From: Spirochaetales bacterium | GTDB lineage: Bacteria > Spirochaetota > GWE2-31-10 | NCBI GenBank assembly: GCA_017624275.1 | Contig: JAGANG010000048.1 | Location: 199 to 64,198 of the forward strand | Direction of reading: 5' to 3' | DNA length: 64,000 bases | Shown: positions 9,338 through 55,225 of the stretch, piece after piece | Position numbering within the stretch: position 1 is the first letter of the stretch | Layout: the number at the start of each line of letters is the position of its first letter | The notes under the pieces: generated by a model | Databases searched by the model: none | Told to the model about the DNA's origin: nothing | The model's input: the letters and a program-made list of their open reading frames with translations, nothing else | Position numbers and translations under genes: made by a program

Positions 9338-9357
9338 TTGTGTCCTCCTACAAAAAA

Positions 9358-10485
9358 TTATACTTCCAAATCTTCCCACAAAAGTCCCGCTCCGGCAGTT
9401 ACATCTACTGCCAATTTTCTTCCCGGAATTTCTTTAAAATATTCCGGTGAAATCCCCGGCGTAAGAACTTTTTCAGTTCGTAATACAGCAATATCTTTAG
9501 CTCGTAATTTTGTTCCGGCTTTTAATGATTTTAAATAATGAATTGAACGATTCGTTCTGTTGTAATTTGCCTTTTCCGAAGCTGCTAATTTTTTTTGACC
9601 GTCACCTAATATCGCATTCACTTTTTCTGTACCGAATTCTTTCATTAGATAAGATAAACGTTCTTCTTCCGCAAGTAAATCCACAGAATGAACTATTTTT
9701 ACCATTTGTGCAAATTGTTTCGGATTAAGTGCTACCGGATCGTCAAGTCCGTCAGTTTCCCGGCTCAACGTAATGTGTTTTTCTATAATCTTTCCCCCAG
9801 CTGCAACCGTAATCGCCGGTACAAGTTCCGGATCCAAAGAATGATCGCTTACACCTACTGATATAGAAAAACGTTCCTTTAAGAATTTCAGAACAGCTAA
9901 ATTGTAATCTGTTTCCGGAGCCGGGTAACTTGTCACGCAATGCAATAGTGAAACTAAGGGCAATTCTTTATCTGCACACGCTGCGTATAATAACGGATTT
10001 AAGAACTTTAAAGTTTTATCGATATCTTCTAACTTTGATACTCCGGACGATAAAATTACCGGTATTTGTGCATTCTCATAATATGTGTTTTGCAATCGCA
10101 AAAGTTCTTCTAACATCGGAAAATGATTTAATTCCGGTGATGCAATTTTTATGGCATCCGGACGTAGCTTCCACAATTCTCGCAAACTGCGAATCCCAAA
10201 CGGCGAACAAGCAAATGCAACGCCTTTACTGCGTGCATACCGACAAACCTTTTTAAAAAATGAAGCGGGAACTTCCAGTGCCAAAAATCTATCATACAAT
10301 CGAATAGATCCTCCCGGTAAATTCACCATCCCTGTATCCGGATGAAGAATTTCATCAGCATAAACCCATTGAAATTTTACACAATCAGCACCGGCAAAAA
10401 CTGCGGCATCTATAAGTTGATATGCTTTTTCAAGTGAACCTCCGTGAGAAGTTCCTATTTCAGCAATAATATATGTTCTGTCCAT
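9358..10485 (-). CDS. NeuB-family nonulosonic/sialic-acid synthase-like protein with C-terminal SAF domain
   Basis: N-terminus MDRTYIIAEIGTSHGGSLEKAYQLIDAAVFAGADCVKFQ matches the NeuB/SpsE signature. A C-terminal SAF-like segment is present. Start chosen at ATG 10485 (GGGAGG 7 nt upstream) rather than ORF start 10500. Confidence 0.75.
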   Translation of the reverse strand: MDRTYIIAEIGTSHGGSLEKAYQLIDAAVFAGADCVKFQWVYADEILHPDTGMVNLPGGSIRLYDRFLALEVPASFFKKVCRYARSKGVAFACSPFGIRSLRELWKLRPDAIKIASPELNHFPMLEELLRLQNTYYENAQIPVILSSGVSKLEDIDKTLKFLNPLLYAACADKELPLVSLLHCVTSYPAPETDYNLAVLKFLKERFSISVGVSDHSLDPELVPAITVAAGGKIIEKHITLSRETDGLDDPVALNPKQFAQMVKIVHSVDLLAEEERLSYLMKEFGTEKVNAILGDGQKKLAASEKANYNRTNRSIHYLKSLKAGTKLRAKDIAVLRTEKVLTPGISPEYFKEIPGRKLAVDVTAGAGLLWEDLEV

Positions 10486-10557
10486 AATTTTTCCTCCCAC
10501 ATTTATAAAAAAAGCGGAATATTACTTCATTTAAATAGATGACGCAAATCAATAATG

Positions 10558-27320: not shown

Positions 27321-28322
27321 TTAATATCCGATACTTATAAGTATTTTCCCGAAAGATTTTTCTTCTTTGGAAGATTTTTCGAAAATCCAACGACAAAATT
27401 GTCTTCGAATATCTTCATCCCACTCCGAATTCCCGGAACTTTTTACTATATTTGCATTTCTTATGTACCCATCGGAATCTACATTAAAATTAATTTCTAT
27501 TACAAATTTAAATCCAGCTTCTTTTACTTCCTGCGGAACTTCGATTGCATCAGAATAAAGCAAACCTCTTGCTCCTCCATTGCTCCACTCAATATCTTTT
27601 CCCTTATTGGATTCATTATCATTATTATTTTTGCTTCCTTCATTTCCCACACCGTTACCGTCATTGTCTTTTCCCGGCGTAGAATTATCAGCAAATAAAA
27701 CATCATCAAAATTAAAATCCGGCAAACTTTCCTGCGATTGCTGAGAATCCTCAAAAAAGTCTTCTTCCAACTGGTGTTTAGTTTCTTTTTGTAATTGTTC
27801 AAATTTATCAAAAATATCCACCTCTTCCGTAACTACCGGTACATTTTCCACAGGTTCAACTTGTTCTTTGATTTGGACATTTTCTTGTTTTTCTTTAATT
27901 TCTTCTTTTGGTAAATCCGGCTGTTTTGCTGCAACATTTGGCTTTTGTGTTTTTTCTACTGTTTTAGTTTTTTTCACATTTACTGATTTAGAAACATTTG
28001 TCGCTTTAGGTTTAAAATCAGATTTCTTCTTATTCACCGATTTCTGAGGAATATTTTTTTTCACCGGAGTAATTTGTTTCTTTGCCGGAGCAGACTCCTT
28101 TTTCATTGATGCATCTTTTTTGTTTCCCGATTTTTCTTGCGAAACACTAAGCTGATCTTGCACTAATCTGACAGTCATTACTCTGTCTTCCGGTTTTGAA
28201 ACATCCGGTTTAAAATATGAAATTCCAAAGATAAAAAAGAAATGCAAAAGAATTGATAAAAAGATTGCCCAGCCTAAGCGTCTTTCTTGTGACTTAACTT
28301 CTCTGTCATTCACCGTATTCAT
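27321..28322 (-). CDS. TonB-like energy transducer
   Basis: N-terminal anchor LGWAIFLSILLHFFFIFGISYF, a long Lys/Pro/Glu-rich linker, and a C-terminal TonB_C-like fold of about 80 aa. Its start overlaps the exbD stop. Confidence 0.7.
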   Translation of the reverse strand: MNTVNDREVKSQERRLGWAIFLSILLHFFFIFGISYFKPDVSKPEDRVMTVRLVQDQLSVSQEKSGNKKDASMKKESAPAKKQITPVKKNIPQKSVNKKKSDFKPKATNVSKSVNVKKTKTVEKTQKPNVAAKQPDLPKEEIKEKQENVQIKEQVEPVENVPVVTEEVDIFDKFEQLQKETKHQLEEDFFEDSQQSQESLPDFNFDDVLFADNSTPGKDNDGNGVGNEGSKNNNDNESNKGKDIEWSNGGARGLLYSDAIEVPQEVKEAGFKFVIEINFNVDSDGYIRNANIVKSSGNSEWDEDIRRQFCRWIFEKSSKEEKSFGKILISIGY

Positions 28323-28735
28323 TACCGCTTCCTGTCTAATGCCAAATCAATACTGTCATAGCCATGTTCTTTTAAAATATCCATAATATTAATGAGTAAT
28401 TCATATTCTATGCTTTTATTTCCATACAAAATAACAGACTTTCTGTCATTACCTCCGGTTACAGCGGATTCCGATAAAATAGCAGAAAAATTTGTCAAAT
28501 TCGTTTTTTGGGTTCCTACCATAATAGAATTTTTATTAACGACAGTTATTTTCAATGGAGTTTCGGCTATTTTTGATAAATTCTCTGCTTTCGGTAACTC
28601 AAATTCCATTCCCGTCGTTATTTTAACTTGCGTTGCTAACATAAAAAATATGATTAACTGGAAAACAATATCAATCATCGGAGCCATATCAAGCACAACT
28701 TTTGTTTTCAGTCTTCTGTTAAATTTTACAGCCAT
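28322..28735 (-). CDS. exbD: ExbD/TolR-family biopolymer transport protein
   Basis: 137 aa. MAPMIDIVFQLIIFFM with the conserved Asp in the single TM segment. Confidence 0.85.
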   Translation of the reverse strand: MAVKFNRRLKTKVVLDMAPMIDIVFQLIIFFMLATQVKITTGMEFELPKAENLSKIAETPLKITVVNKNSIMVGTQKTNLTNFSAILSESAVTGGNDRKSVILYGNKSIEYELLINIMDILKEHGYDSIDLALDRKR

Positions 28736-28736
28736 A

Positions 28737-29366
28737 TCAGCCTCTTTTTTCCTGTTTTATTAACATTTGAATAAGATTATTTGCCTGAATTTCCAGTTTC
28801 AAAATCATATTATTAACCTTGTTTGTGTAATGATTATAAACAACCGTTGACGGTATCGCCACAACCAACCCAAACGCAGTCGTTAATAACGCCTTAGAAA
28901 TTCCTTGTGCCAACTGTTCCATATTTCCCAAAGACGCTCCGGCTCCGATAACTCCGAATGTTTCCATATTTCCCATTACTGTACCTAAAAGCCCCAACAA
29001 CGGAGCAATACTTGCAATAGAACCTAATGTAGTAAGAAATTTTTCCAACTTAGGAATCTCCAAACTTGCAGCATCTTTTATTGCATCTTGAATTCTGGCT
29101 TCATCTTCCTTTCGATGTTTTATTCCTGCTTTTACTAAATTTGTTACCGGAGACGGTTTAGAATCACAAATCGCAAGTACTTCTTCATAGTGATTCATAG
29201 ATATCGCCTTGGCAATTCTATCTAAAAGTTTATCTGTACCTAAATTAATCTTTTTATAATAAAAGAATCGTTCCAGCGTAATCGCCAATGCAATAATCGA
29301 ACAGATAAAAATAGCAGACATTATAAAAGGTCCGCCATCCATAAATAACTTTATAATTCCTTTCAT
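28737..29366 (-). CDS. exbB: MotA/TolQ/ExbB-family proton channel
   Basis: 209 aa with three TM segments. APLLGLLGTVMGNMETF is the ExbB/TolQ signature. Confidence 0.88.
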   Translation of the reverse strand: MKGIIKLFMDGGPFIMSAIFICSIIALAITLERFFYYKKINLGTDKLLDRIAKAISMNHYEEVLAICDSKPSPVTNLVKAGIKHRKEDEARIQDAIKDAASLEIPKLEKFLTTLGSIASIAPLLGLLGTVMGNMETFGVIGAGASLGNMEQLAQGISKALLTTAFGLVVAIPSTVVYNHYTNKVNNMILKLEIQANNLIQMLIKQEKRG

Positions 29367-29430: not shown

Positions 29431-29474
29431 AAAAATAAAAAAACCCTTTAATAGAAATCTTATCTATTAAAGGG
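29431..29474 (-). terminator. Rho-independent terminator of the hyperacidic-protein gene
   Basis: On the minus strand, an 11-bp stem CCCTTTAATAG/CTATTAAAGGG with a 9-nt loop is followed by TTTTTTTATTTTT. Confidence 0.8.
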
Positions 29475-29495
29475 CTAACTTGAAATCAACAAAAA

Positions 29496-29837
29496 TTATT
29501 CATCTTCATCATAATCATTATAATCTAATTCGTCGTCTTCGTAATCATCTTCATCATCGTCGAATTCGTCATAATCTTCATCGTCTTCATCATAATCATC
29601 ATAGTCTTCGTCGTCATAATCTTCATCATCATAATCATCGAAGTCATCATCATAATCATCATCATCAAAGTCGTCATCAAAGTCGTCGTCTTCGTCATAA
29701 TCTTCGTCGTCTTCATCATAATCATCGCTGTCATCGTAGTCATCATCAAAATCGTCTTCTCCGTCATCGTCATCATCGTACGCAACAGCAAAAAGAGTAT
29801 TTTTTTCTAATAATTCTTCTTCTTCTACATAAAACAT
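29496..29837 (-). CDS. Hyperacidic Asp/Glu-rich protein with periodic Tyr/Phe (no known family)
   Basis: 113 aa. GGGAGGG lies 8 nt upstream of the ATG, and a strong terminator lies directly downstream. In residues 21-113, 72 of 93 are D/E and 17 are Y/F. Only one basic residue (K12). No signal peptide. Confidence 0.7.
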   Translation of the reverse strand: MFYVEEEELLEKNTLFAVAYDDDDDGEDDFDDDYDDSDDYDEDDEDYDEDDDFDDDFDDDDYDDDFDDYDDEDYDDEDYDDYDEDDEDYDEFDDDEDDYEDDELDYNDYDEDE

Positions 29838-29937
29838 AATAAGGTCCCTCCCTTAGTGTCTCTAAAATTTTCATAGACATAGAACATAAAGCAAATATTC
29901 TTGTCAAGATATTTTTTATGAATTAATGCTATACATC

Positions 29938-30603
29938 CTATGAAAAAATACTGTTTAAAATAGAACTGCAATCTTTCTTGAAATAATCCACAAAATTTTG
30001 AGATGCAGTAAACACGGGGATCTCATATTCTTCCGTTAAAATTTGAGGCAAAGGCCAGCAGTCTTTAGCCATTACGCACCAAATAACAAGCATCTTTACG
30101 TTCTTTTCAATAAAATCAGCCAGTCTTACCGGTTCTTTTAATTGCAAATCTTTCATGAACGACAAAAAACCTACCGGTTTTTCACGATAATAATATTTAC
30201 TGTTAATTTTATCGTTTCCTAAGTAAAACTTAAGTAATTGATTTCTAAGTTTATTACCAAAGCTATTTTTTTTGTATTTACCACTTAAAAGTGTTCCGTA
30301 AAAATCCGGTTCAATAAAAAAAACACCTTTTATTTTTTCTGAAAACCGTTTTACCAACTCACCGGCAATGTAAGAAAAAACTCCGAATGAAACAATATAA
30401 ACCGGCTCTTTTTCATTTATTATAATTTGCGATATATTCAAAACAAATTCATCATAAGTTGTGTCTTTAGAATAATCTAAAAAAATCGGATTATACTGAA
30501 TACTTCCAAAAAGACTGTAAACAACTTCATTACTAAAAATTCGGTTAAAAGGGAAGAAAGGAGAGACAATAACACTGACAGGTTTATTATTTTCCAAATT
30601 CAC
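29938..30603 (-). CDS. Hypothetical protein, possibly a degenerate alpha/beta-hydrolase fold
   Basis: 221 aa. GTG start with GGGAGG 6 nt upstream. The strand/helix pattern resembles a small alpha/beta hydrolase (PVSVIVSPFF..., EPVYIVSFGVFSYIAGELV), but I see no GxSxG and no catalytic His. Confidence 0.45.
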   Translation of the reverse strand: MNLENNKPVSVIVSPFFPFNRIFSNEVVYSLFGSIQYNPIFLDYSKDTTYDEFVLNISQIIINEKEPVYIVSFGVFSYIAGELVKRFSEKIKGVFFIEPDFYGTLLSGKYKKNSFGNKLRNQLLKFYLGNDKINSKYYYREKPVGFLSFMKDLQLKEPVRLADFIEKNVKMLVIWCVMAKDCWPLPQILTEEYEIPVFTASQNFVDYFKKDCSSILNSIFS

Positions 30604-30647
30604 TTTTTACCTCCCGATAGCTTTTCTATAAAATCTTAGAATTTTAA

Positions 30648-32006
30648 TTAATTCGTACTATTAAGCAACGCTTCTATTGCTACTTTATTAATTTTTCCCA
30701 TTTCGTTTTTGGGAATTTTTGTTTGAAAAATTTTCTTAGGAACTGCATAACCAGGTAAAATCTTTCTCAAGTCTCTGCTAATTTGATTTATATCCAATAT
30801 ATTATCAAACTCAACTAAAATATAAATAGATTCGTCCTGGCATCCCACAAAAACTTCATTTTCATTTAAGTCAATTCCAAATGAATCTTTTAAATAAGTT
30901 CTAAAATTAGCAGAAACGAATCCCAAATCAACTCTTTTTCCATGTATTTTCACAAAGCGAGTATTACGTCCCAATAAAACAAAATGTTTATCATCAGTAA
31001 ACTTTACAACATCACCGGTACAATAACCAATATCTTTATCATATTCGACAGAAATCGCAGGAGATGAAATAAAAAGTTCCAATTCTTGTTCCGGGTCATA
31101 ATTTTTTATTGTTACGTAATCAATCAAACAATAATTGGGATTTTCTGCAAATACTCGATATGCCATCCCTCCGGTCTCTGTAGAACCGTAAATCTCATGA
31201 ATCTTAATACCTTTTTCTAAAAACTTTTGAGAAATCTCTCCCGGTAAAGGCCCGGAAGAACTAAAAGCACCTTTTAATTTAGAAAAACTATCTATTAAAT
31301 CCAACTTATCAAATAATGAATAATAAGACGGTACCGAAACGAGATAATCAATATTTGACTTTGCAACATAATCAGCTATTGATTCCGGTGTGAAAAAAGA
31401 ATTCAAATCAATCACTGCTGAAGCAAAAATAGGTAACATCGTAAAAAGAAAACCATAAATATGATAAATCGGCGGTATACAAAAAAATACATCTTCGCTT
31501 TTCAGCGAAAACAATCTGTGAAGTTCCGCCAACTCGGTTAATATATTGGAATTCCATTTGCCAATATTTTTAGATTTTCCCGTAGAACCGGACGTAAAAA
31601 AATACAAATCATAAGTATTTTCAAAACTCTTAACTTTATCCGGACAAAAATTCTCGCCCGGAATTAAAGAAAAATCTTCATTCAAAAAAATACCATCCGG
31701 GCAATGTTTATTGTCACTGATATAAATTATACCCGGCTCAAAGAAAATTTGAGGTTGAATTTCAATAGGAACTAAAACCGTTACCAGGTTCAATTTCTTC
31801 ATTGTAAAAAATAAAATTAAAAAAGAAAACCTATCCTTTATATCAATATAAACTCGCTTGTTATCAATATCTTTTAGCAAATTACAAAAATTCTTTTCCA
31901 ATAAAGATATTTTTTTATCTATATCACTTTTTGTATAGCAAGAATCTTTATATAAAAAGGAAACATTTTGCGAATCACTGTAAATCGAATACAAAGAATT
32001 TTTCAT
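30648..32006 (-). CDS. AMP-dependent synthetase/ligase (short, about 450-aa adenylate-forming enzyme; probable acyl/aryl-ACP ligase)
   Basis: Adenylation core motifs FFTSGSTGKSKNIG, YGSTETGG, TGDVV, GRNTRFVKIHGKRVDL and EMGKINK. Its ATG overlaps the upstream stop (ATGA). Confidence 0.85.
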   Translation of the reverse strand: MKNSLYSIYSDSQNVSFLYKDSCYTKSDIDKKISLLEKNFCNLLKDIDNKRVYIDIKDRFSFLILFFTMKKLNLVTVLVPIEIQPQIFFEPGIIYISDNKHCPDGIFLNEDFSLIPGENFCPDKVKSFENTYDLYFFTSGSTGKSKNIGKWNSNILTELAELHRLFSLKSEDVFFCIPPIYHIYGFLFTMLPIFASAVIDLNSFFTPESIADYVAKSNIDYLVSVPSYYSLFDKLDLIDSFSKLKGAFSSSGPLPGEISQKFLEKGIKIHEIYGSTETGGMAYRVFAENPNYCLIDYVTIKNYDPEQELELFISSPAISVEYDKDIGYCTGDVVKFTDDKHFVLLGRNTRFVKIHGKRVDLGFVSANFRTYLKDSFGIDLNENEVFVGCQDESIYILVEFDNILDINQISRDLRKILPGYAVPKKIFQTKIPKNEMGKINKVAIEALLNSTN

Positions 32007-32890
32007 AAGACAACCTCAAATAGGAAATATTTCCCTTTAAAATGTCCTATCACAGCAGTCTTTCCATGAAGACTTAAAATAAAAGGAAGTGCCAACCGTG
32101 TTATTATTGAAATCGGTGCATCGCCGACTATCGGATAATCAGTCAGCAATTCTGCATTTACTTTATCTTTTAGTTCTATAAAAGACTCTTTATCTGCAAA
32201 TACGTATTCATAATCACACAAGAAGCTTTTTATTTGCTCCCATGAACAATTTTCATGCTTTAGAAAAAATCCTTTTTGTTCATCAACATTCTTTTGAATT
32301 TTATAAGAAACAAAACTTGGATAAAGTTGATATTTGTATTTTACTTCCAAATCATAAAATGAAGAATACTCATCTCCGGCAACAATTACAAATTCCGGAT
32401 TAATTCTTACTAAGAATTTTATTAAATCTACAAAAGATTTTCCCGTATTTATTCCGTCAGACACTGCTAAACAATAATTATGATATTTATTAATTATTGT
32501 GTAATATCCTAAAGGTGTATTATGTACTGAATTATGAAATAAAACAGGACTTACTAATTTACTTTGATTCAATTCTAAATCTGCAATAATTTTATTCGAT
32601 GTATCAATCTCAGCAAAAGATGTGAATAAATAAATTTCGTCATCTTCCCTAAGATTTTTTGCACCTCCGTTTTGAAGTGCTTGATACACACCTAAAGACA
32701 ACTGACTCATTCGTCGTTTCAAAGGTGATTTTATATTATCAGACAATCCGGGAATCTCTTGTGATAAATTCTCTGGTAATTTCACATCAGAAAAAAGACC
32801 ATTGCTATACATTTCTCTTAATGAATCTAAAGATGAAACATTGGAATTTATGAAATGAATATCTCTAATGTAAGTAAATTCTTGTTCCAT
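32003..32890 (-). CDS. Ketosynthase N-terminal-like partner protein (chain-length-factor-like, PF13723-type)
   Basis: 295 aa. KRRMSQLSLGVYQAL and FHNSVHNTPLGYYTI resemble the KS-like partner proteins of aryl-polyene-type clusters. No Cys-His-His triad. Translationally coupled on both sides. Confidence 0.6.
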   Translation of the reverse strand: MEQEFTYIRDIHFINSNVSSLDSLREMYSNGLFSDVKLPENLSQEIPGLSDNIKSPLKRRMSQLSLGVYQALQNGGAKNLREDDEIYLFTSFAEIDTSNKIIADLELNQSKLVSPVLFHNSVHNTPLGYYTIINKYHNYCLAVSDGINTGKSFVDLIKFLVRINPEFVIVAGDEYSSFYDLEVKYKYQLYPSFVSYKIQKNVDEQKGFFLKHENCSWEQIKSFLCDYEYVFADKESFIELKDKVNAELLTDYPIVGDAPISIITRLALPFILSLHGKTAVIGHFKGKYFLFEVVL

Positions 32891-34059
32891 TATGCGTCTT
32901 TCTCTCCGGAATTATCATCTAAATTTGTTTTTATCAATACAGAAACATTGTTTCCGCCGAATCCAAAAGAATTCTTTAAGAAATATCTTATATTTTCCGC
33001 TTTTACTGTTTTTAACGGAATTAAAGGACTGATAGGATCAGAAAAATCTGTCGGCTGATAAATAAAACCGCTTCTTAACATATCAATACAAATTGCAATT
33101 TCTGCAATTGTCGATGCCCCTAATGTATGACCGACATATGACTTTAATGAAGTTACAAGAGTTTTCTTGCTGAAAATATCTTCCAATACAGACAATTCTA
33201 CTTGGTCATTCATTTTTGTCCCGGTACCATGAGCATTTACATATCCCACATCATCGGAACAAACTCCTGCTTCATCTAATGCACTATAAATACATTTTCT
33301 TTGATTTGCTCCGGAAGGATCCGGAGAAGTAATATGATGTCCGTCAACTCCGGAAGCAACACCGGCTATTTCAAAATCATTAGGTGTTCGGGATTTATTC
33401 TCTAAAATAAGAATTCCGGCTCCCTCTCCCAGCGTAAGACCGTCTCTCTGCTCTGTTAAAGGACGTGAAGCTTTATCTGACACCAATTGTAACGAATCAA
33501 AACCAATCAACGTTGTTTTTGAAATTATATCAATCCCTAGTAAAATCGCATAATCAATTACTCCGGCACGAATTAAGCGTGCTGCTTGATAAATTGCGTG
33601 TCCTGAAGAAGAACATGCGGTTGAAAAAGTAAAAATCTCACCGATTTTTCCTTCCGGATATCTCTTTTTTACATCCGTACTGGTTTTATTGAAAAAATGG
33701 TTTTCAAACACAGAATAAGAAGATTTTTTATTAATCAAATCAATATAATTACACTCAGTTTCTCTTATTCCGCCTGTCGATGACGATAAAAAGACCGGGA
33801 TATTTTCATGCGAATCGATAAAGTCTTTGCACTTATCTAGAAGAGAAAAAATAATAGCAGACGATCTGACTTGATTCCCATATTCTTTAAAAGAATTCGA
33901 AATCTCATAATAAGGCTTACTAAAATTAAAAACTTTTTCGTCTGTTCTCGGTTCTGGTTTATTCTGGCTTAAAGACTGTAAAATTTCATCTGTAGTAATA
34001 CCAAGGGAGCTTGCACTCCCATGGTACGTAATAAACACTCTATTTTTTTGCATTTTCAT
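32890..34059 (-). CDS. Beta-ketoacyl-ACP synthase (FabF/FabB-like, divergent)
   Basis: 389 aa. Active-site Cys in FSTACSSSGHA, and His residues in NAHGTGT and VGHTLGAS. The C-terminus carries NSFGFGGNN. Confidence 0.88.
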   Translation of the reverse strand: MKMQKNRVFITYHGSASSLGITTDEILQSLSQNKPEPRTDEKVFNFSKPYYEISNSFKEYGNQVRSSAIIFSLLDKCKDFIDSHENIPVFLSSSTGGIRETECNYIDLINKKSSYSVFENHFFNKTSTDVKKRYPEGKIGEIFTFSTACSSSGHAIYQAARLIRAGVIDYAILLGIDIISKTTLIGFDSLQLVSDKASRPLTEQRDGLTLGEGAGILILENKSRTPNDFEIAGVASGVDGHHITSPDPSGANQRKCIYSALDEAGVCSDDVGYVNAHGTGTKMNDQVELSVLEDIFSKKTLVTSLKSYVGHTLGASTIAEIAICIDMLRSGFIYQPTDFSDPISPLIPLKTVKAENIRYFLKNSFGFGGNNVSVLIKTNLDDNSGEKDA

Positions 34060-34294
34060 TTACAAAATCGTAGAAAATTTTAAATGAATCCAGTTTATTT
34101 TGATTCAAATCTTTATCTTTTATTTTAATTCCGAATTTCTTTTCGATTTCTACAATTAATTCCAAAACATCAATTGAATCGAAAAATAATCCGTCCTCTC
34201 CGATTAAAACTGTATCATCTGTAATTGAACTGATATCATCATCACTTTTTGCTACAGTTAAAATCACTTTTTTTAATTCATCTTTATCAACCAT
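34040..34294 (-). CDS. Dedicated acyl carrier protein
   Basis: 84 aa. Phosphopantetheine site DSIDVLEL. GGAGG RBS. Its 3' end overlaps the KS start by 20 nt. It begins 24 nt after the secG stop. Confidence 0.8.
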   Translation of the reverse strand: MVDKDELKKVILTVAKSDDDISSITDDTVLIGEDGLFFDSIDVLELIVEIEKKFGIKIKDKDLNQNKLDSFKIFYDFVNENAKK

Positions 34295-34318: not shown

Positions 34319-34867
34319 TTATTCTACTATTGTAGTTACAGCCTCAGGAGAATAATTAATATCATTCAAGATTTCTACAATTCGTGCTTTATTATTCTTT
34401 GCAGCATCTTTTGTCAAAGTATAATACAAACCGCTCTTATCTTTTTCATAATAAGATTTAAGTTCTGTTTTAACACCTTCATCAGAAATCTTTCCGATAA
34501 TAAAAGTTTCAAAATCTTCTGCGTTAATATTTTCCGGAGCTTCAGACAATGTTTTAACAGCAGTTTCTGAAGTAATACCGGCATCAAATTCTAACTCGCT
34601 TATAAGTTTATCTCCAATTTGAGCGTCTCTTGTTGTCTTAGCTGAAAGAGATCCGATTATCAAACTCAAAACAAAGAATAAAACTAAAAGAACAGAAGTT
34701 ATTTTTGTAAGCATTGTCGCTGAACTTGCACCAAAGAAAGACTGTGATGATCCGCCAAGAACACCCAATCCGCCACCGGATTTATCTTCTTGAACTAAGA
34801 TTACCAAAGTCATTAAAACACAAACGACAAGCATAATCACTGCTAAAATATTAATTGTTAAATGCAT
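34319..34867 (-). CDS. secG: Preprotein translocase subunit SecG with a long C-terminal extension
   Basis: The N-terminal 75 aa or so match SecG (two TM segments flanking QEDKSGGGLGVLGGSSQSFFGASS). An extra soluble tail of about 100 aa follows. It sits downstream of tpiA, as in many bacteria. Confidence 0.8.
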   Translation of the reverse strand: MHLTINILAVIMLVVCVLMTLVILVQEDKSGGGLGVLGGSSQSFFGASSATMLTKITSVLLVLFFVLSLIIGSLSAKTTRDAQIGDKLISELEFDAGITSETAVKTLSEAPENINAEDFETFIIGKISDEGVKTELKSYYEKDKSGLYYTLTKDAAKNNKARIVEILNDINYSPEAVTTIVE

Positions 34868-34882
34868 TTTATTTCCTTAAAA

Positions 34883-35644
34883 TTAAACTTTTTCAAATTT
34901 AGCAATTTTTGTAAACGGAGCCAATTTAAGAGATGCACCGCCGACTAACGCTCCGTCAATATTTTTTTGTGCCATCAAATTATCAACATTTGCATCAGAT
35001 ACAGAACCACCATATTGAACAGTCACATTTTCTGCAACTTCAGCACCATAAAGATTTGTCAAAATATTTCTAATATCTTGGTGGGTCGCTTCTGCAATTT
35101 CCGGTGTAGCGGTTTTTCCAGTACCGATAGCCCAAACAGGTTCGTAAGCGATTACAACATTAGCCATTTCTGCCGCAGAAACATCTTTTAACCCTTCTTC
35201 CAATTGTTTTTTTACAACATCAGCAGTAACACCGGCTTCTCTTTCTTCCAAATGCTCTCCGATACAAAGAACAGGTTTTAAACCTTTTGCCAATGCAAAT
35301 TTCACTTTTTTATTGATTAAAGCATTATCTTCCTTATAGATATCTCTTCTTTCTGAATGTCCTAAAATAACATACTCAACACCCAAGTCGAGCAACATAT
35401 CCGCAGAAACTTCTCCGGTATAAGCACCTTTTTCATTATCATTCATATTTTGAGCACCCAACTTTATAGGTGTTCCTGCAATAGCTTCTTTTACATACGC
35501 AAGTGATGCAAAATTCGGTGCAATCATAACATCTACATCTTTATCTAAATCTTTAATGTTTGCAGCAAGCTCTAAAGCAAATTTTTTCGCTTCGCTTGGA
35601 GTTAAATTCATCTTCCAATTTCCTGCCATTAAATATCTTCTCAT
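34883..35644 (-). CDS. tpiA: Triosephosphate isomerase
   Basis: 253 aa. AGNWKMN, ILGHSERR and AYEPVWAIGTGKTA. Confidence 0.95.
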   Translation of the reverse strand: MRRYLMAGNWKMNLTPSEAKKFALELAANIKDLDKDVDVMIAPNFASLAYVKEAIAGTPIKLGAQNMNDNEKGAYTGEVSADMLLDLGVEYVILGHSERRDIYKEDNALINKKVKFALAKGLKPVLCIGEHLEEREAGVTADVVKKQLEEGLKDVSAAEMANVVIAYEPVWAIGTGKTATPEIAEATHQDIRNILTNLYGAEVAENVTVQYGGSVSDANVDNLMAQKNIDGALVGGASLKLAPFTKIAKFEKV

Positions 35645-35801
35645 AATACTTACTCCACTGAAAAAAAATAATTGGGTCGAATATACCCTTATGAAATTAA
35701 ATTGTCAAAGTATTTTTCGATATTGCGGTTCTATAATTCTTAACTGTACCTTTTACCTAAAATAAGGTACAATTATCGTCAATTATTTTCAAGGAGACCT
35801 T

Positions 35802-41810: not shown

Positions 41811-42053
41811 ATGACAAACGAAGAAATTTTTGAAAAAGTTAAAAAATTAATTGCTGAAAGATTAGCTGTAAATGAAAGTAAAATTGTTCCTGAAGCTTCT
41901 TTTATTGAAGATTTAGGTGCAGACTCTTTAGACACTGTAGAATTACTTACACAGTTGGAACAAGAATTCAACATTACAATTCCTGATGAAGATGCTGAAA
42001 AAATTACTACAGTTGGAAGCGTTATCGATTATATCCAGGCAAATGAAGCATAA
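41811..42053 (+). CDS. acpP: Housekeeping acyl carrier protein
   Basis: 80 aa. Canonical [19 protein letters not shown]. Confidence 0.93.
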
Positions 42054-42078
42054 TTAAAATCTTCATTTATCAACCAAG

Positions 42079-42122
42079 CCTTTATAAAAGAACCGGATAA
42101 GTTTTTTTATAAAGGTTTTTTT
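42079..42122 (+). terminator. Rho-independent terminator (or attenuator) after acpP
   Basis: 11-bp stem CCTTTATAAAA/TTTTATAAAGG, followed by TTTTTTT. Confidence 0.7.
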
Positions 42123-42169
42123 GTTAGATAGAGTTACAATTTTTACTCTATTAATTACGGAGTTCCCCC

Positions 42170-42946
42170 TTGGAAACAAAAAGAAAAAATGAATTAAAAA
42201 ATTTCCTAAAAGTACAAAAGATTAAATTCAATGACCTCAACCTTCTTGATTTGGCATTATCACATCGTTCTTTTGCCAATGAAAAAAACTCCGGCACAGA
42301 AAACAACGAAAAATTAGAATTTCTCGGAGATTCTGTTCTAGGCTTAATTATCACGGAATTTCTTTACAAAAACTACCCAACCTTACACGAAGGTGATTTT
42401 GCAAGAGTAAAATCATTTGTTGTCAGTGAAGAAATGTTGTCACAACAAGGTAAAAATATAGGGTTAAATAAATTAATAAAAATCGGACACGGCGAAGAAA
42501 TGACCGGCGGTCGTGAAAAAAAAGCAATAATTGCCGATGCGTTTGAAGCATTCCTCGGAGCGATGTATTTAGATTCAAAATATTCAAAAGTCGAAGAATT
42601 TGTAATCAGATTATTTGCGGAAGAAATCACCCTTGTAATAAACGAACATCACGGACAAGACTACAAAACTTTATTGCAAGAATTTGTTCAGAAAAAATAT
42701 CGAGATTGTCCGCAATATCGTCAAATTTCTGAGAGCGGTCCGGAACATAACAAAACTTTCTTGATGGAAGTTATTATAAACAACGAAACTATTGCACAAG
42801 GATACGGAAAATCAAAAAAAGAAGCCGAAAAAAATGCTGCTAAAATTGCTTACCAAAAAATTACAGCAAATTCTCCTAAAACAGAAAAACAAATTACCGA
42901 AATCCATAAAAAAGGCCGAAAATCTCATAGTAAAAAGAGAGGTTAA
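42170..42946 (+). CDS. rnc: Ribonuclease III
   Basis: TTG start (no in-frame ATG nearby). Signature EKLEFLGDSVL, and a C-terminal dsRBD followed by a Lys-rich tail. Confidence 0.9.
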   Translation: METKRKNELKNFLKVQKIKFNDLNLLDLALSHRSFANEKNSGTENNEKLEFLGDSVLGLIITEFLYKNYPTLHEGDFARVKSFVVSEEMLSQQGKNIGLNKLIKIGHGEEMTGGREKKAIIADAFEAFLGAMYLDSKYSKVEEFVIRLFAEEITLVINEHHGQDYKTLLQEFVQKKYRDCPQYRQISESGPEHNKTFLMEVIINNETIAQGYGKSKKEAEKNAAKIAYQKITANSPKTEKQITEIHKKGRKSHSKKRG

Positions 42947-50332: not shown

Positions 50333-50431
50333 AACTCTATAAATTGAATTTATGATTAATTTTGTTAAAAAATGAAAAAATGCTATCATAAAAAATTAAT
50401 CGACTACGGTACTTTTATAGGAGAAATAAAA

Positions 50432-51790
50432 ATGAAAAAACTATTATTCTATATTCTTATTTTGACAACAATACTCGGATGTGATTCCACCGACAATGAG
50501 CAAACAAACAAAAACAAGGATGCAATTATTGATAATGCAACTGTCGGTAAACTACAAGACAGAATAAATAACGCTATAGATAATGACATTATCAATCTGG
50601 AAGATTTTGATTTAGACGACACCGATGTAGTAATTAACAAAAAATTGACAATAAAAAACGGCTCTCTGGATAATGTTCGTCTGAAAATAACAAGCAATGA
50701 TGTTACATTACAAAACATAAAATCTATTAAAAATATCGACAGCAACTCTTCAAATCTGACAATCATAAATTCTAAAGTGTCCGATTTACTTTTGCAAAGC
50801 GGGAATTCTCGCAGTAATACTGATTGTAACCTTATAGGTTGCAGAATCAATTCTTTGACTGTAAGCAGTACTACAAATCTGTTAGTCGCTAATTTTAACA
50901 AAAATATTGATAAACTGACCGGTACGCCTTTTTCACTAACAGCTCCTACAAATATCGCCGAAGAACTCGGTATTTCAACTGCCGACGAAATGGGAAATAA
51001 CACACTTTACGACTATTACGACACAAACACACCGGCCGGCGAAAATGTAATTTATACCGCAAAAGGTTGGCCGGAATATGTAGCACGTTATGTGTCCGCA
51101 TTGTATCCGGAAAGTTTTGATTTTGACGCAGACTTACCTATAGACAAAAACGTGAATTATTACATTGACGACAAATCTAAAGCAAAAAATACTTTTGTCA
51201 AAGCCGGCTTTAAAGACATAAAAAAAGCCAGAATTTGTAAATTCTACATCGCAGAAGATGATGAAGAAAATTTTTCCGGTTACAACGCTTACATAGAAAA
51301 ATTAAAAGCAATCGACAATGTCTATAGTGATTTTTGCTTTTTTGATATTGCCGATAATGACACAATAGTTTCTTTTGACTTCGATGAAGACGGAATTTAT
51401 TACAATTCAAACAATTGGAAAGAAGCCGTAACCGATTATATTACCGCATTTGATTGCACTGAAGATGATGCGAAAATGCAACTGTTTGGTTCTACCGACG
51501 ACATCGAAATAGAAGAAAATTTCGGTGGGGATAACAGTATTGTCGCAATTTATCCGACAGATTGGAAAGCAACGGATGAAGCAAAATGGATAGAACACGT
51601 AACAGAAACAAGATGTAAACAAAAAAATCTGTCTCGTGAAAATATTTACAGAAGTGATTCTTATACATGGAAAAATAATGAGAGCATATTTTTTATATAT
51701 GTAGATGAACCGTGTTTCTATGAAAAGAATGAAAAATTTGATGCAAACGCATACTATTACGAAATAGATTTGTATTCTGCCACAAAATAA
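50432..51790 (+). CDS. Hypothetical lipoprotein with N-terminal right-handed beta-helix-like repeats
   Basis: Start set at ATG 50432 (AGGAGA upstream), giving MKKLLFYILILTTILGC. Short repeated N/I/L/T-rich beta-strand units (LTIKNGSLDNVRLKITSNDVTLQNIKSIKNI...). Confidence 0.55.
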   Translation: MKKLLFYILILTTILGCDSTDNEQTNKNKDAIIDNATVGKLQDRINNAIDNDIINLEDFDLDDTDVVINKKLTIKNGSLDNVRLKITSNDVTLQNIKSIKNIDSNSSNLTIINSKVSDLLLQSGNSRSNTDCNLIGCRINSLTVSSTTNLLVANFNKNIDKLTGTPFSLTAPTNIAEELGISTADEMGNNTLYDYYDTNTPAGENVIYTAKGWPEYVARYVSALYPESFDFDADLPIDKNVNYYIDDKSKAKNTFVKAGFKDIKKARICKFYIAEDDEENFSGYNAYIEKLKAIDNVYSDFCFFDIADNDTIVSFDFDEDGIYYNSNNWKEAVTDYITAFDCTEDDAKMQLFGSTDDIEIEENFGGDNSIVAIYPTDWKATDEAKWIEHVTETRCKQKNLSRENIYRSDSYTWKNNESIFFIYVDEPCFYEKNEKFDANAYYYEIDLYSATK

Positions 51791-51842
51791 CGGCATTAAA
51801 AAACGGTCTGAAAAAACAATCAGACGACAAGGAGGTAAAATA

Positions 51843-52802
51843 ATGAAGCATTACTTACTCCTTTTAATTATACCGTTTGCATTTTTTTCTTGTTGTTTTG
51901 GTCTTTGTGAACCGTCAATACATCCAAAACCTTTCAATTTTTGTGAATATAATCCGGAAAAAGCTAGAGCTGAAATCTTGCAAATACATAATTTTCAAAG
52001 TTTATTTGATACGTCACTACAATTTATTTATATATGTGAACATGCGGAAAAATTTTATTTTGCAAGTAATATAAATGATAAAGAAATTACTATATGCATA
52101 GTTGATAAAGCAACAATGACCTTAGAAAATAAGGTAAAAATAACTTTAGAAGATATTGAAAATGAAGTAAAAACTTATACTCCTGCAAGTCTTTTAGACT
52201 TTGAAGTTTTTTATAACAAAGCTTATTTCCAAATTGAATGGAGTTATCGCCACTATAATGAAAACTCATATACATATACAACTGAGTATATATATAAACT
52301 TTTAACTTTTGATTTTTCTGACAATACACTGGCAGAACTGGATACATTTAAGACGTTTGGGATTGATATTGATGATATTGACAACTTTACCATAGACCAG
52401 GTAACAAATCGTTTTTGCTTGCAAGATTACAATAAACTCAATTTTTTTACTTATGACAAATCAAACGACACTTACATAAAAGATGAAATCATTGAAATAG
52501 AAGAATATAAAAACATCGAAATTCACGAATTCGATGATTTTGCTTTTTTTGATACTAATGTTTTAAATATTTATGGAAATACAATTTGCAGAAGTGGCTC
52601 TATTGATAATAATTATAACAAAGGCGATACAACTTACATTCTTCTTTCTGACATTGCAGATGTGACAAAAGAAGAGTTTATAATCTTAAATTATTTAGAA
52701 TATACTTATTTTAAGGATGTTCTGTATGACGGAGAATTTGTTTGGGTTATTACGGGCAACAAGAATGAAAATAACCAACTGTTAAAACTTAAATTGCTGT
52801 GA
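51843..52802 (+). CDS. Cys-rich-N-terminus lipoprotein, paralogue 1 (hypothetical family)
   Basis: 319 aa. MKHYLLLLIIPFAFFSCC lipobox. It aligns along its whole length with the 54358 gene (CEYNP, KFYF, F-x-SDNT, GIDI-x-I-NF, FFTYD, YDGEF-W-IT, QLLKLKLL). Confidence 0.6.
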   Translation: MKHYLLLLIIPFAFFSCCFGLCEPSIHPKPFNFCEYNPEKARAEILQIHNFQSLFDTSLQFIYICEHAEKFYFASNINDKEITICIVDKATMTLENKVKITLEDIENEVKTYTPASLLDFEVFYNKAYFQIEWSYRHYNENSYTYTTEYIYKLLTFDFSDNTLAELDTFKTFGIDIDDIDNFTIDQVTNRFCLQDYNKLNFFTYDKSNDTYIKDEIIEIEEYKNIEIHEFDDFAFFDTNVLNIYGNTICRSGSIDNNYNKGDTTYILLSDIADVTKEEFIILNYLEYTYFKDVLYDGEFVWVITGNKNENNQLLKLKLL

Positions 52803-52872: not shown

Positions 52873-54201
52873 TTATTTATCTGCCTTATCATCATCGGAA
52901 ATAAGCCCGTGCTTTTTCTGATATTCTTCGGTAAGATTATAATATTTCATTGCTTCAGCCGGATCTAACGGGAAGCGAGTGAAGAATTCTTTCCAGCAAT
53001 ACAAGAAACCTTCTTCCATTTCCTCTTTTGTCATTTTCTTAGGTTGGAATACACAATGAGCTCCGTTGTACAAATCGAAATCCTCTGTCAAAATACGATT
53101 TTTTGCTTTGTATTTTCGCCACATCGGAGTTCCCGGATACGGGGTCGCAAGCCAGAATTCTACAAATCTAATTTTGTTACGTTCCAAGAATTTCAAATGT
53201 TTTTCAAAAATATCTTTTGTGTCAGATTCCAAGCCCATTGTAACTGACGCAAAAATTTCCAAACCTGCATCTCTCATGCGTTTGAAGTTTGTTTCTGCTT
53301 CTTCCGGCATATCGTGTGTTACGGCTTTCATACTGATAGGGTCAAATCCGGTTACACAATACAAATGATCTACACCGGCATCTTTTACCAAACGAAGCAA
53401 TTTTTCATCTTTGGTAAGCATAGCCGAACCGGAAAGGAATATTGATTTTTTATAATTTAAATCTTTCAATCGAGAGAAAAATTCGTATGCATATTTTTCC
53501 GTAACTTCGGTAGGAAACAACAATTGGTCATCGGCAATGAATAATCCGTCCATATCCATATTCATTTCAATTTCTTTAATAACATGTTCAGGCGGACGCA
53601 TTCTTATACAATTACCGTGAGCTCCGGGAATCGCACAATAATTACAACGCATATCACAACCACGGAAACATTGTACAAGTACAGGTTTCCAGTCATAACC
53701 TTTTTTATTCTTAAACAATCGACGGTCGGGCATTACATAGTTTGCCATGTCAAAGGTATTATCGCCGACATAAAATTCTTGTAATTTACCTTTTTTGGCA
53801 TCTTCAAGAACTTGCGGATAAGTTTGTTCTGCTTCACCGATACAAACTGCATCACAATGTTTTTTTGCATCTTCCGGATAATTAGTCGGCAAAATTCCGC
53901 CCATTACAGTTTTCACACCTCTGGCACGGAAAGTATCACCTATTTCATAGGCATGTTTTGCCTGCGGAGTAAAACAGTTGATAACAACTAAATCAAAATG
54001 TTCATCGTACGGAATCGGGTCAAGGTTACCGTCTGCAAAATGAACTTCGTGTTCGTCCGGTGTCAAAGCTGTCATAATCGGGATTCCCAAAGACGGCGTG
54101 CTTTTGTACGACGCATACAAAGGGAAATTCAACGCTTCCAAAATTCCGGGGTTAGTCTCCAGATATTTTTTGAAATGCGGATAAACGAAAAGAATTTTCA
54201 T
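52873..54201 (-). CDS. B12-binding-domain radical SAM protein
   Basis: 442 aa. N-terminal cobalamin-binding-type Rossmann region (MKILFVYPHF...VVINCFTP). Radical SAM CxxxCxxC = CDMRCNYC at 53635-53658. Confidence 0.85.
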   Translation of the reverse strand: MKILFVYPHFKKYLETNPGILEALNFPLYASYKSTPSLGIPIMTALTPDEHEVHFADGNLDPIPYDEHFDLVVINCFTPQAKHAYEIGDTFRARGVKTVMGGILPTNYPEDAKKHCDAVCIGEAEQTYPQVLEDAKKGKLQEFYVGDNTFDMANYVMPDRRLFKNKKGYDWKPVLVQCFRGCDMRCNYCAIPGAHGNCIRMRPPEHVIKEIEMNMDMDGLFIADDQLLFPTEVTEKYAYEFFSRLKDLNYKKSIFLSGSAMLTKDEKLLRLVKDAGVDHLYCVTGFDPISMKAVTHDMPEEAETNFKRMRDAGLEIFASVTMGLESDTKDIFEKHLKFLERNKIRFVEFWLATPYPGTPMWRKYKAKNRILTEDFDLYNGAHCVFQPKKMTKEEMEEGFLYCWKEFFTRFPLDPAEAMKYYNLTEEYQKKHGLISDDDKADK

Positions 54202-54357: not shown

Positions 54358-55225
54358 ATGAAGCATTACTTACTCCTATTAATTATACCGTTTGCATTTT
54401 TTTCTTGTTGTTGTGATATTTGTGACCCAGCTGCAGGTGGACGTAGCCCTCAAATTTGTGAATATAATCCCTCAAAAGCCGGTGCAGACATTGTAGAGCA
54501 ATATTACATCGCAAATTTATTTCAAGAAAAGCAAGAATGGACCTGTATTTTCAATCAATACAACGATAAGTTCTATTTCGTAACTTATTTTGATACAAAT
54601 AAATACATTTCGGTAGTTAATAAAACAACTATGCAAGTAGAAAAAAATATTCTTATTCCTTTTCCTTTTGAAAATATTAAGATTCGTGATTTTGCATTAC
54701 ACAACAATAAAATATTATTTTTCATCAAAACTGAAGAATATGGGAATGCTCTTTTTTCTTTTGACCAATCTGATAACACTGTAAAAGAAATTACAATTGA
54801 AACTATTGGAATAGACATTAATGAAATTAATAATTTCGGGATAGACAGCGTAACCGGTAAGTTCTATTTTAGAATACATCGCAATGTACTTCAATTTTTT
54901 ACATATGATGAAACCAATAACACTTGTTCGGCAAGTGAATCAGTGAAGACTGCTAAGCTGATTAATTGGAGTTATGCATATGGCTTAGACCTTTATAATA
55001 ACGTTATATACTCACCCCCGTTCATATCAGAATATGGCAGGCCAGATACGTACATATATTCGTATACGTAATTTATCTGACATCAGTGAAAAACTAAAAA
55101 AAATAGACTTGAATTATCTTAATTCCATATATGCTTATAATGTACTATACGACGGAGAATTTATCTGGACTATCACTAATGACAAGAATTGTAATTTGCA
55201 ACTGTTAAAACTTAAATTGCTGTGA
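54358..55225 (+). pseudogene. Cys-rich-N-terminus lipoprotein, paralogue 2, split by a frameshift at about 55050-55070
   Basis: ORF 54358-55071 (237 aa) ends in YIYSYT*. The conserved C-terminal third (LSDISEK...YDGEFIWTIT...QLLKLKLL) continues in the +1 frame (55034-55225). Confidence 0.6.

Follow-up and report, generated by a model that had tools for sequence, protein, structure and literature searches.

A 64,000-nt stretch of a Spirochaetales genome (assembly GCA_017624275.1, contig JAGANG010000048.1; hereafter the window, to whose positions coordinates refer unless another locus is named) carries on its minus strand a compact module of six genes. They encode a dedicated acyl carrier protein (ACP), a ketosynthase (KS), a non-catalytic KS partner, an adenylate-forming ligase, a 221-amino-acid (aa) protein with a hydrolase-like fold, and a poly-acidic protein. 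By homology, the first four of these proteins form a core that branched off from the aryl-polyene (APE) machinery, a highly reducing system resembling type II polyketide synthases (PKSs). On balance, we judge it probable that the six genes form a vertically inherited operon in which a ligase-primed condensing unit, composed of the KS and a chain-length factor (CLF), would lead to a lipid-like product. The original prediction, made from the letters of the window, had described five genes. All five were found with the positions, strand, overlaps, and motifs it had listed, and the acidic gene was added as a sixth member of the unit. The Pfam families expected of the core (PF00550, PF00109/PF02801, PF13723, and PF00501) were all detected.

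The KS is classed from its sequence as an ApeO-type enzyme, and not as FabF or FabB. Its five active-site residues, listed in Table 1, align in the order given there with C163, H303, H340, K335, and F400 of Escherichia coli FabF, and the Cys-His-His triad that had been described as complete is intact. Among E. coli proteins, with the cluster of strain CFT073 supplying the APE set, the best match was ApeO (186 bits, 31% identity over 391 aa), followed by ApeR (129 bits), FabF (124 bits), and FabB (96 bits). The top two matches in the PDB were likewise ApeO chains (6QSP_A, 170 bits; 7F28_B, 141 bits), while FabF structures reached at most 138 bits and the actinorhodin KS-alpha (1TQY_A) only 95. 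The highest-scoring NCBIfam model was the APE-type PRK09185 (272 bits, below its cutoff of 407); the scores on the fabF equivalog TIGR03150 (195.5 bits, cutoff 493.75) and on the FabB model PRK07967 (111 bits, cutoff 630) also fell short. In a neighbor-joining tree of 31 KSs (373 columns, Kimura distances, 500 bootstraps), the spirochaete KSs formed one clade (91%) that was joined to the ApeO-like KSs (88%), and the FabF, FabB, and ApeR-like KSs split off with 100% support. A housekeeping FabF/FabB identity, the outcome that the original prediction had named as fatal to itself, is contradicted both by this split and by the scores under the fabF and fabB cutoffs.

The KS partner was expected to be KS-like and of the CLF type, and the evidence from sequence and model agrees with this assignment. 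It contains the segments RRMSQLSLG and FHNSVHNTPLGYY but no Cys-His-His triad, and it matches PF13723 (33.3 bits, cutoff 25), with no match in NCBIfam. Its sole significant PDB match was the ApeC chain 6QSP_B (E = 0.002), and E. coli ApeC itself aligned with 25% identity over 146 aa (E = 1e-5). An AlphaFold2 (AF2) model with a pLDDT of 81 showed a KS/CLF fold, for which Foldseek returned ApeC (6QSP_B) as the top match (TM score 0.71 on the target), the runners-up being the CLFs of the ishigamide (Iga12) and anthraquinone (AntE) type II PKSs. The prediction had hinged on KS-fold homology of this protein, and such homology was found. Because the best PDB matches of the KS and of the partner are the ApeO and ApeC chains of 6QSP, the two proteins match the two subunits of a single solved heterodimer. 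The ACP matched PF00550 at 29.6 bits, with PRK09184 as its best NCBIfam model (below cutoff) and ApeE as its best E. coli match. The ligase, described beforehand as a short enzyme with all core motifs, indeed has motifs A3, A5, A7, A8, and A10 in its 452 aa and aligns with E. coli ApeH (30% over 232 aa, E = 1e-15).

APE-type clusters are considered the biosynthetic cluster family with the widest distribution in bacteria, and are large units of ~18 genes found in Proteobacteria and Bacteroidota. In these systems ApeH charges the ACP with 4-hydroxybenzoic acid (4-HBA), bypassing a CoA intermediate, ApeO and ApeC form the condensing heterodimer, and some clusters carry one ACP, not a tandem pair. 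Each core protein of the module has its APE counterpart (ApeH, ApeE, and the ApeO-ApeC pair of structures 6QSP and 7F28) as its best match, and E. coli ApeO (389 aa) and ApeH (452 aa) have the same lengths as the module's KS and ligase. The aryl-polyene-type core recognized in the four genes is borne out, as homology, protein by protein. The identities, however, are only 22–35%, the scores fall short of the family cutoffs, and the partner has 295 aa against ~240 for ApeC. Absent from the module are ApeQ, ApeI/ApeP, ApeR, ApeK, ApeD/ApeJ, ApeL/ApeN/ApeM, the methyltransferase ApeB, and a second ACP; it also encodes two accessory, unrelated proteins, one a dead alpha/beta hydrolase and the other poly-acidic. 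Its position is also chromosomal, among housekeeping genes, and vertically inherited. Judged by gene content, the module shares the APE core but fails membership as an APE cluster, since ketoreductase (KR) and dehydratase (DH), ApeR, and anchoring and export genes are absent.

These absences were surveyed in the window by Pfam and NCBIfam searches of nearly all open reading frames (ORFs) of at least 110 aa and by six-frame tblastn with E. coli FabD, FabG, FabH, FabF, FabB, and ApeA–R. In the survey for APE and type II fatty acid synthesis (FAS II) genes, only the module and acpP were found, with the module KS as the only KS in the window. The six-frame search of the 64 kb detected no homolog of KR, DH, thioesterase, acyltransferase, LolA, MMPL, FabD, FabG, or FabH, and the annotated window held no cyclase-like genes. 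Across ~25 spirochaete loci, none of ApeQ/FabG, ApeI/ApeP, ApeR, ApeK, ApeD, ApeJ, ApeL, ApeM, ApeN, FabD, or FabH was found within 8–10 kb. The earlier statement that KR, DH, thioesterase, acyltransferase, and LolA/MMPL genes are missing therefore holds for the window, and no thioesterase, acyltransferase, or LolA homolog was found within 8–10 kb in the loci; an MMPL gene unrelated to the APE export set occurs in locus L095. A short-chain dehydrogenase/reductase in L095, considered as a KR for the module, lies beyond parAB, is of the benzil-reductase type, and was not counted. All the non-spirochaete relatives retrieved with the partner profile (from Myxococcota, Methylococcaceae, mussel symbionts, and others) lie in canonical ApeO-ApeC-ApeP-ApeQ-ApeR clusters with LolA, acyltransferase, and thioesterase genes. 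The separate canonical acpP that had been noticed was located on the plus strand at 41811–42053; its product shares 60% identity with E. coli AcpP, while the gene adjoins rnc with no fab genes around it (41811–42946). A lone acpP beside rnc occurs in spirochaetes without de novo fatty acid synthesis, and its occurrence here without fab genes raises the question of whether the organism has FAS II at all.

The distribution of the module points to a single lineage. Among the best 80 matches, on which the taxonomy rests, full-length orthologues of the partner came from uncultured Spirochaetota metagenome-assembled genomes (MAGs) only, representing ~20 GTDB species, and no cultured spirochaete genus was found. 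Rumen, faeces, anaerobic digesters, and groundwater are the sources of the MAGs that bear the module; for the window, the matching metagenome scaffolds are of the ruminant type. Almost all the loci keep the order tpiA-secG-ACP-KS-partner-ligase, and the ACP/KS and partner/ligase overlaps are conserved; because it recurs in ~20 species-level lineages, the arrangement far exceeds what chance would give. The KS, partner, and ligase diverge in step with tpiA, as judged from pairwise identities (Pearson 0.75–0.82, 91 pairs), and the GC content of the module (31%) is similar to that of the window (34%). This co-divergence and the window-like composition indicate vertical inheritance within the uncultured Spirochaetota clade.

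Two loci depart from the usual layout. In L023 (4881–12000) the module is split into convergent halves, partner-ligase-hydrolase-like-acidic against tpiA-secG-ACP-KS, which may reflect either a real inversion or a misassembly. In L007 (5953–10385) a paralogous KS-partner pair has as neighbors a gene for a metallo-beta-lactamase-fold protein and one of the ladderane-type B12/radical-SAM family TIGR04072 for lipid biosynthesis (328 bits); the same MAG (JAKSBL01) also holds a canonical module, at locus L013.

The fifth gene encodes the 221-aa protein, for which no Pfam or NCBIfam match was obtained. The description of a hydrolase-like protein without GxSxG or His was accurate, as the sequence contains no GxSxG and not a single His. 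Word-indexed searches found 10 relatives with the single sequence and 20 with a profile, and 36 representatives turned up when 1.84 billion proteins were searched exhaustively with HMMER; all that these searches returned was the protein's own small family together with marginal generic alpha/beta hydrolases. The weakest of these relatives are genuine Abhydrolase_1 proteins, and both Abhydrolase_1 and Ndr were matched. The AF2 model (pLDDT 85.6, pTM 0.87) was assigned by Foldseek to the alpha/beta-hydrolase fold with a probability of 1.00 and TM scores of 0.6–0.68, the matches including esterases, hydroxynitrile lyases, and the thioesterase domain of the curacin PKS. Where the remote relatives have G-F-S-x-G, the family has G-F-G-x-F. 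The Ser of GFSFG aligns with Gly74, which stands at the nucleophile elbow, the junction of strand 68–73 and helix 74–87. The invariant residues are P18, F73, F76, E98-P99-D100, W175, P184-L185, Q187, and E191, and no Ser, Cys, or His is conserved across the family alignment. The degenerate pattern seen originally corresponds to a modelled hydrolase fold in which Gly74 stands in place of the nucleophile and His is lacking. Judged from this model, the protein is not a classical hydrolase, and a binding, hand-over, or scaffolding role, as the most economical reading, is most likely. It resembles the Ndr family, matched by its weak relatives, in having the fold with the nucleophile replaced and no His. 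Other non-catalytic proteins of this fold include ABHD5/CGI-58 and GID1. To the named non-catalytic families, however, the 221-aa protein has no detectable sequence kinship, and it has invariants of its own (EPDF and WPLxQ).

The sixth gene encodes a protein that is 68% Asp and Glu and 19% Phe and Tyr, arranged in DDDF/DDDY-like repeats after a short non-acidic N terminus. Comparable poly-acidic ORFs of 113–168 aa stand at the equivalent place in lineages where the partner is only 40–45% identical to that of the window. In 17 loci the sequence runs on for at least 1.5 kb past the ligase; the acidic ORF was present in 15 of these, as was the hydrolase-like gene (15/17). In L094 and L096 the acidic gene occurs but the hydrolase-like gene is missing. 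We considered whether the ORF might be an artifact of composition or the antisense of a His/Arg-rich ORF on the plus strand (29480–29839). This was rejected because of the strong Shine-Dalgarno (SD) sequence, the minus-strand terminator, and the fact that 15 loci keep an acidic ORF on the strand of the module; the plus-strand ORF is the mirror image of the acidic gene and no gene itself. In L018 (9428–10040) the acidic gene appears as two overlapping acidic frames (141 and 165 codons), suggesting that a frameshift or an assembly slip occurred in the repetitive GAT/GAC tract.

The six genes are closely packed (Table 1). Overlaps of 20 nt, 1 nt (TAATG), and 4 nt (ATGA) link the ACP gene to the KS gene, the KS gene to the partner gene, and the partner gene to the ligase gene, respectively; 44 nt separate the ligase from the 221-aa gene and 100 nt separate the latter from the acidic gene. 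The terminator after the acidic gene folds with −17.9 kcal/mol (z = −6.2), and none of 200 shuffled sequences folded as well. No terminator-like site was present in the 24-nt gap between secG and the ACP gene of the window. The number of promoter-like matches in the region did not exceed the shuffle expectation, and the match 5' of tpiA is a candidate promoter for tpiA-secG and, in the window's lineage, for the module. The proposal that the module is appended to tpiA-secG holds for its position, which is conserved. As for a shared transcript, the secG-ACP gap is 9–27 nt in the window's subclade and some other lineages but 140–220 nt elsewhere, in several cases with hairpins after secG, so that co-transcription with secG is probably lineage-specific. 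Searches of the long gaps for riboswitches or conserved RNAs gave only Rfam noise, and the gaps were unalignable. The SecG protein of the window consists of a SecG domain (residues 7–72 of 182) and a C-terminal extension of ~110 aa, with clade orthologues of 112–198 aa.

Table 1. Module genes, flanking genes, and signals in the window, with the ammonia-lyase genes of two related loci
Feature	Position	Strand	Basis and remarks
tpiA (triosephosphate isomerase), conserved upstream neighbor	34883..35644	-	PF00121; synteny
secG, conserved upstream neighbor	34319..34867	-	182 aa; ends 24 nt before ACP gene
Dedicated acyl carrier protein gene	34040..34294	-	84 aa; Ser40 in DSID; SD GGGGAGG; PF00550
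ApeO-type ketosynthase gene	32890..34059	-	389 aa; Cys149-His277-His311, Lys306, Phe367
Non-catalytic KS partner, chain-length-factor type	32003..32890	-	295 aa; PF13723; AF2 model
ApeH-like adenylate-forming enzyme, predicted acyl/aryl-ACP ligase	30648..32006	-	452 aa; PF00501; motifs
Triad-less alpha/beta-hydrolase-fold protein, clade-restricted	29938..30603	-	221 aa; GTG start; pI 8.3
Poly-acidic protein, sixth module gene	29496..29837	-	113 aa; SD GGGAGGG
Intrinsic terminator closing the unit	29442..29476	-	14-bp stem + U-tract
Sigma-70-like promoter match 5' of tpiA	35680..35708	-	TTGACA-17-TATATT; 11/12 consensus match only
MIO ammonia-lyase, L025	4963-6546		TAL/HAL, FlxA models
MIO ammonia-lyase, L026	4996-6582		TAL/HAL, FlxA models

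Homology, fold, catalytic residues, gene order, and distribution are what was seen here; from them we infer the biochemical steps, the starter, and the product. In the proposed scheme, the ApeH-like ligase would adenylate a carboxylic acid and load it directly onto Ser40 of the ACP. The ApeO-like KS would take over this starter and carry out at least one decarboxylative Claisen condensation with malonyl-ACP, and the inert ApeC-like partner would stabilize it as a heterodimer. Because the module has no reductase, dehydratase, thioesterase, or second KS, the processing of the beta-carbon and the loading of malonyl units would depend on enzymes encoded elsewhere, or else the product would remain a beta-keto compound. 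The borrowing of reductive enzymes from FAS II, which the original prediction held to be necessary, may be one route to a lipid or polyene; an unreduced product made non-iteratively, for which cispentacin AmcF-AmcG offers a precedent, is equally conceivable, and acpP is the sole FAS II gene in the window. The triad-less 221-aa protein would most likely bind or hand over the acyl product, not hydrolyze it.

The only direct clue to the starter comes from two sister loci, L025 and L026, in which a MIO-family aromatic amino acid ammonia-lyase gene lies 12–17 nt upstream of the ACP gene, in place of tpiA-secG. These loci branch apart from the others within the spirochaete KS clade and lack the hydrolase-like and acidic genes; L026 additionally contains a second ACP, a divergent KS of 355 aa, an orphan of 126 aa, and a sodium/solute symporter. 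The two lyases scored ~430 bits on tyrosine and histidine ammonia-lyase (TAL/HAL) models and 380–391 on the flexirubin FlxA model, in every case below the equivalog cutoff. The best model for the L026 ligase was a PYP-type 4-coumarate-CoA ligase, on which the window's ligase scored 65 bits, and the ligases of L025 and L026 are 40–46% identical to that of the window, the same range as for other orthologues. A lyase before the ACP gene and ligases that match a 4-coumarate-CoA ligase model recall the starter supply of flexirubin and PYP systems (FlxA plus 4-coumarate ligase), from which the module differs in that the lyase falls below the equivalog cutoffs and is absent from the window's lineage. 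By analogy with these loci, an acid of the aryl or arylacrylic type is the probable starter, the variant loci themselves hinting at an aryl- or heteroaryl-acrylic acid.

The nature of the product is suggested by L095, where 2 nt separate the gene for the hydrolase-like family member (E = 1.4e-53) from a downstream gene for an HAE3/HpnN-like MMPL transporter. Because one lineage couples the module to such an exporter, the product is probably hydrophobic and envelope-bound, and by analogy the coupling suggests that it is exported. A CheX-like gene (CheY-P phosphatase family) stands directly after the ligase both in L095 (9768–13515), where the hydrolase-like gene and then the MMPL transporter come next, and in L096 (5035–5490).

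A bolder version of this scheme, which we put forward only tentatively, is that of a hitherto unrecognized, clade-defining pathway in which an APE-derived priming and condensing core and two new kinds of partner would produce a novel constitutive envelope lipid without cluster-encoded reductive enzymes. The triad-less protein would receive or hand over the acyl product, and the acidic protein would be a dedicated cofactor, such as a mimic of the ACP surface, a scaffold, a regulator, or an acceptor.

Several observations weigh against a ligase-primed pathway to a lipid-like product. No KR or DH gene lies within 8–10 kb of the module in any locus. The KS, ACP, and ligase all fall below the curated cutoff of every NCBIfam model, which points to a distinct lineage and not to a set of APE orthologues. 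The matches of the ligase are generic, with similar scores for malonyl-CoA synthetase, fatty acid ligases, and adenylation domains of nonribosomal peptide synthetases, and reveal no specificity. The selectivity residues of the sister-locus lyases (FH) are ambiguous between His, Phe, and Tyr lyases, and a search for MIO ammonia-lyases in the window and in the main-clade loci found none. The MMPL linkage occurs in one lineage only (L095). Finally, one member of the 221-aa family lies outside any module. It is a divergent protein of 273 aa that keeps the motifs, encoded in L092 (5804–7822) away from any KS module, after a secreted-looking orphan of 388 aa and before clpP.

Of the other explanations, the one that survives best is a non-iterative minimal module, in which a polar acid would be loaded and extended by a single C2 unit, possibly with partner-assisted cyclization, to give a small beta-keto or cyclic acid; we regard it as unlikely. 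The precedent is the cispentacin/coronafacic acid system (AmcH, AmcB, AmcF-AmcG), which has the same four roles in one operon with no dedicated KR/DH for the condensing step, is known from four-gene "minimal type" clusters, and recruits the FAS enzymes FabD and FabI in trans (PMC10698177). The module has the same four-gene architecture, and the absence of KR, DH, and enoylreductase from every locus fits a product needing no reduction cycle. The matches of the KS to the AmcF model (153 bits) and of the ACP to the AmcB model (30 bits) were significant but far under the cutoffs (325 and 80, respectively). The KS, however, scored higher on the APE-type model (272 against 153 bits) and groups with the ApeO-like KSs. 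The partner is a PF13723/ApeC protein in sequence and fold, while AmcG is described as lacking any known motif (PMC10698177). Homologs of AmcC, AmcD, and AmcE are missing from the module, and the MMPL coupling in L095 suggests a hydrophobic product.

Distinctly less probable is a role in fatty acid salvage or priming, with the ligase activating exogenous acids (short, branched, or long-chain) as an acyl-ACP synthetase, and with the KS pair passing them into fatty acid synthesis or taking the place of its initiation step, independently of FabH. Models for long-chain fatty-acid-CoA ligase and for an Aas-type acyl-ACP synthetase domain were indeed among the top NCBIfam matches of the ligase (80 and 65 bits), and the housekeeping position after tpiA-secG and the vertical inheritance would fit primary metabolism; the lone acpP beside rnc, with no fab genes nearby, is a further point in favor. 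A dedicated second ACP and a heterodimeric KS of the ApeO/ApeC type, however, are hallmarks of a specialized pathway, the lyase-linked variant points to aromatic starters, and the module is confined to one clade, with no cultured spirochaete genera in the best 80 matches.

A malonate-fed minimal PKS, in which a MatB-like ligase would load malonate, the partner or the KS would decarboxylate malonyl-ACP for priming, and an unreduced poly-beta-keto chain would result, seems very improbable. It would account for the best PDB match of the ligase, the malonyl-CoA synthetase 4FUQ (42.7 bits), and for its score on the malonyl-CoA synthase model PRK07514 (63 bits), and would make FabD, found at none of the loci, dispensable; these scores, however, are no better than those of many unrelated ANL families. 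In contrast to aromatic type II PKSs, moreover, the module has a KS nearer to ApeO than to KS-alpha, a partner of the short APE type that is nearest to ApeC and not to KS-beta, and no cyclase or aromatase genes. A primary FAS II condensing set, which would fit the only KS in the window and its housekeeping neighborhood, is effectively refuted by the KS score on the fabF model and the fully supported split in the tree, by the Cys-less partner paired with the KS, by the separate canonical AcpP, and by the lack of FabD, FabG, FabZ, and FabI alongside the module in ~25 loci.

We thus retain the ligase-primed, APE-derived condensing unit as the preferred reading. The original claim that such a module had not been described in spirochaetes was upheld in part. 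The searchable literature does not contain this module, but antiSMASH "arylpolyene" labels exist for gut Treponema MAGs. The core is recognizably APE-derived; the module's minimal architecture and its housekeeping context are new, as are the partner that has a hydrolase fold but no triad and the poly-acidic protein. Automated tools probably count the module as "arylpolyene", a misleading label given the missing genes. What we describe is a set of four APE core enzymes freed from the reductive, releasing, and exporting genes, fixed beside housekeeping genes across a spirochaete lineage, and joined by two orphan partners. If active, it would show what a minimal ApeO-ApeC unit does alone, could bring to light a new lipid or metabolite from uncultured bacteria of a host-associated group, and could assign a function to a new family of non-catalytic hydrolase-fold proteins and to a very unusual poly-acidic protein.

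Some neighboring genes deserve mention. Directly past the module terminator lies an operon for ExbB (209 aa), ExbD (137 aa), and a TonB-like protein (333 aa) with a Lys/Glu-rich linker (27321–29366, minus strand). The same trio follows the module in the window's subclade and in L012, and is convergent to it in L093; the adjacency may be mere synteny or a functional envelope link. Further away, a giant ORF of 2003 aa without an NCBIfam family (3368–9379, minus strand) is flanked by genes for a class A penicillin-binding protein (1178–3367) and a NeuB-family protein (9358–10500). A B12-binding radical-SAM gene (52873–54201, minus strand; 442 aa) was considered as a module-linked member of the ladderane-type family, in view of the gene of that type beside the paralogous pair of L007, and rejected, with 43 bits against a cutoff of 360. 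It belongs to no defined subfamily, its best match being HpnJ (62 bits), and it is surrounded by family-less ORFs (50372–52802 and 54358–55071) and a DUF6056 membrane protein gene (55281–56843).

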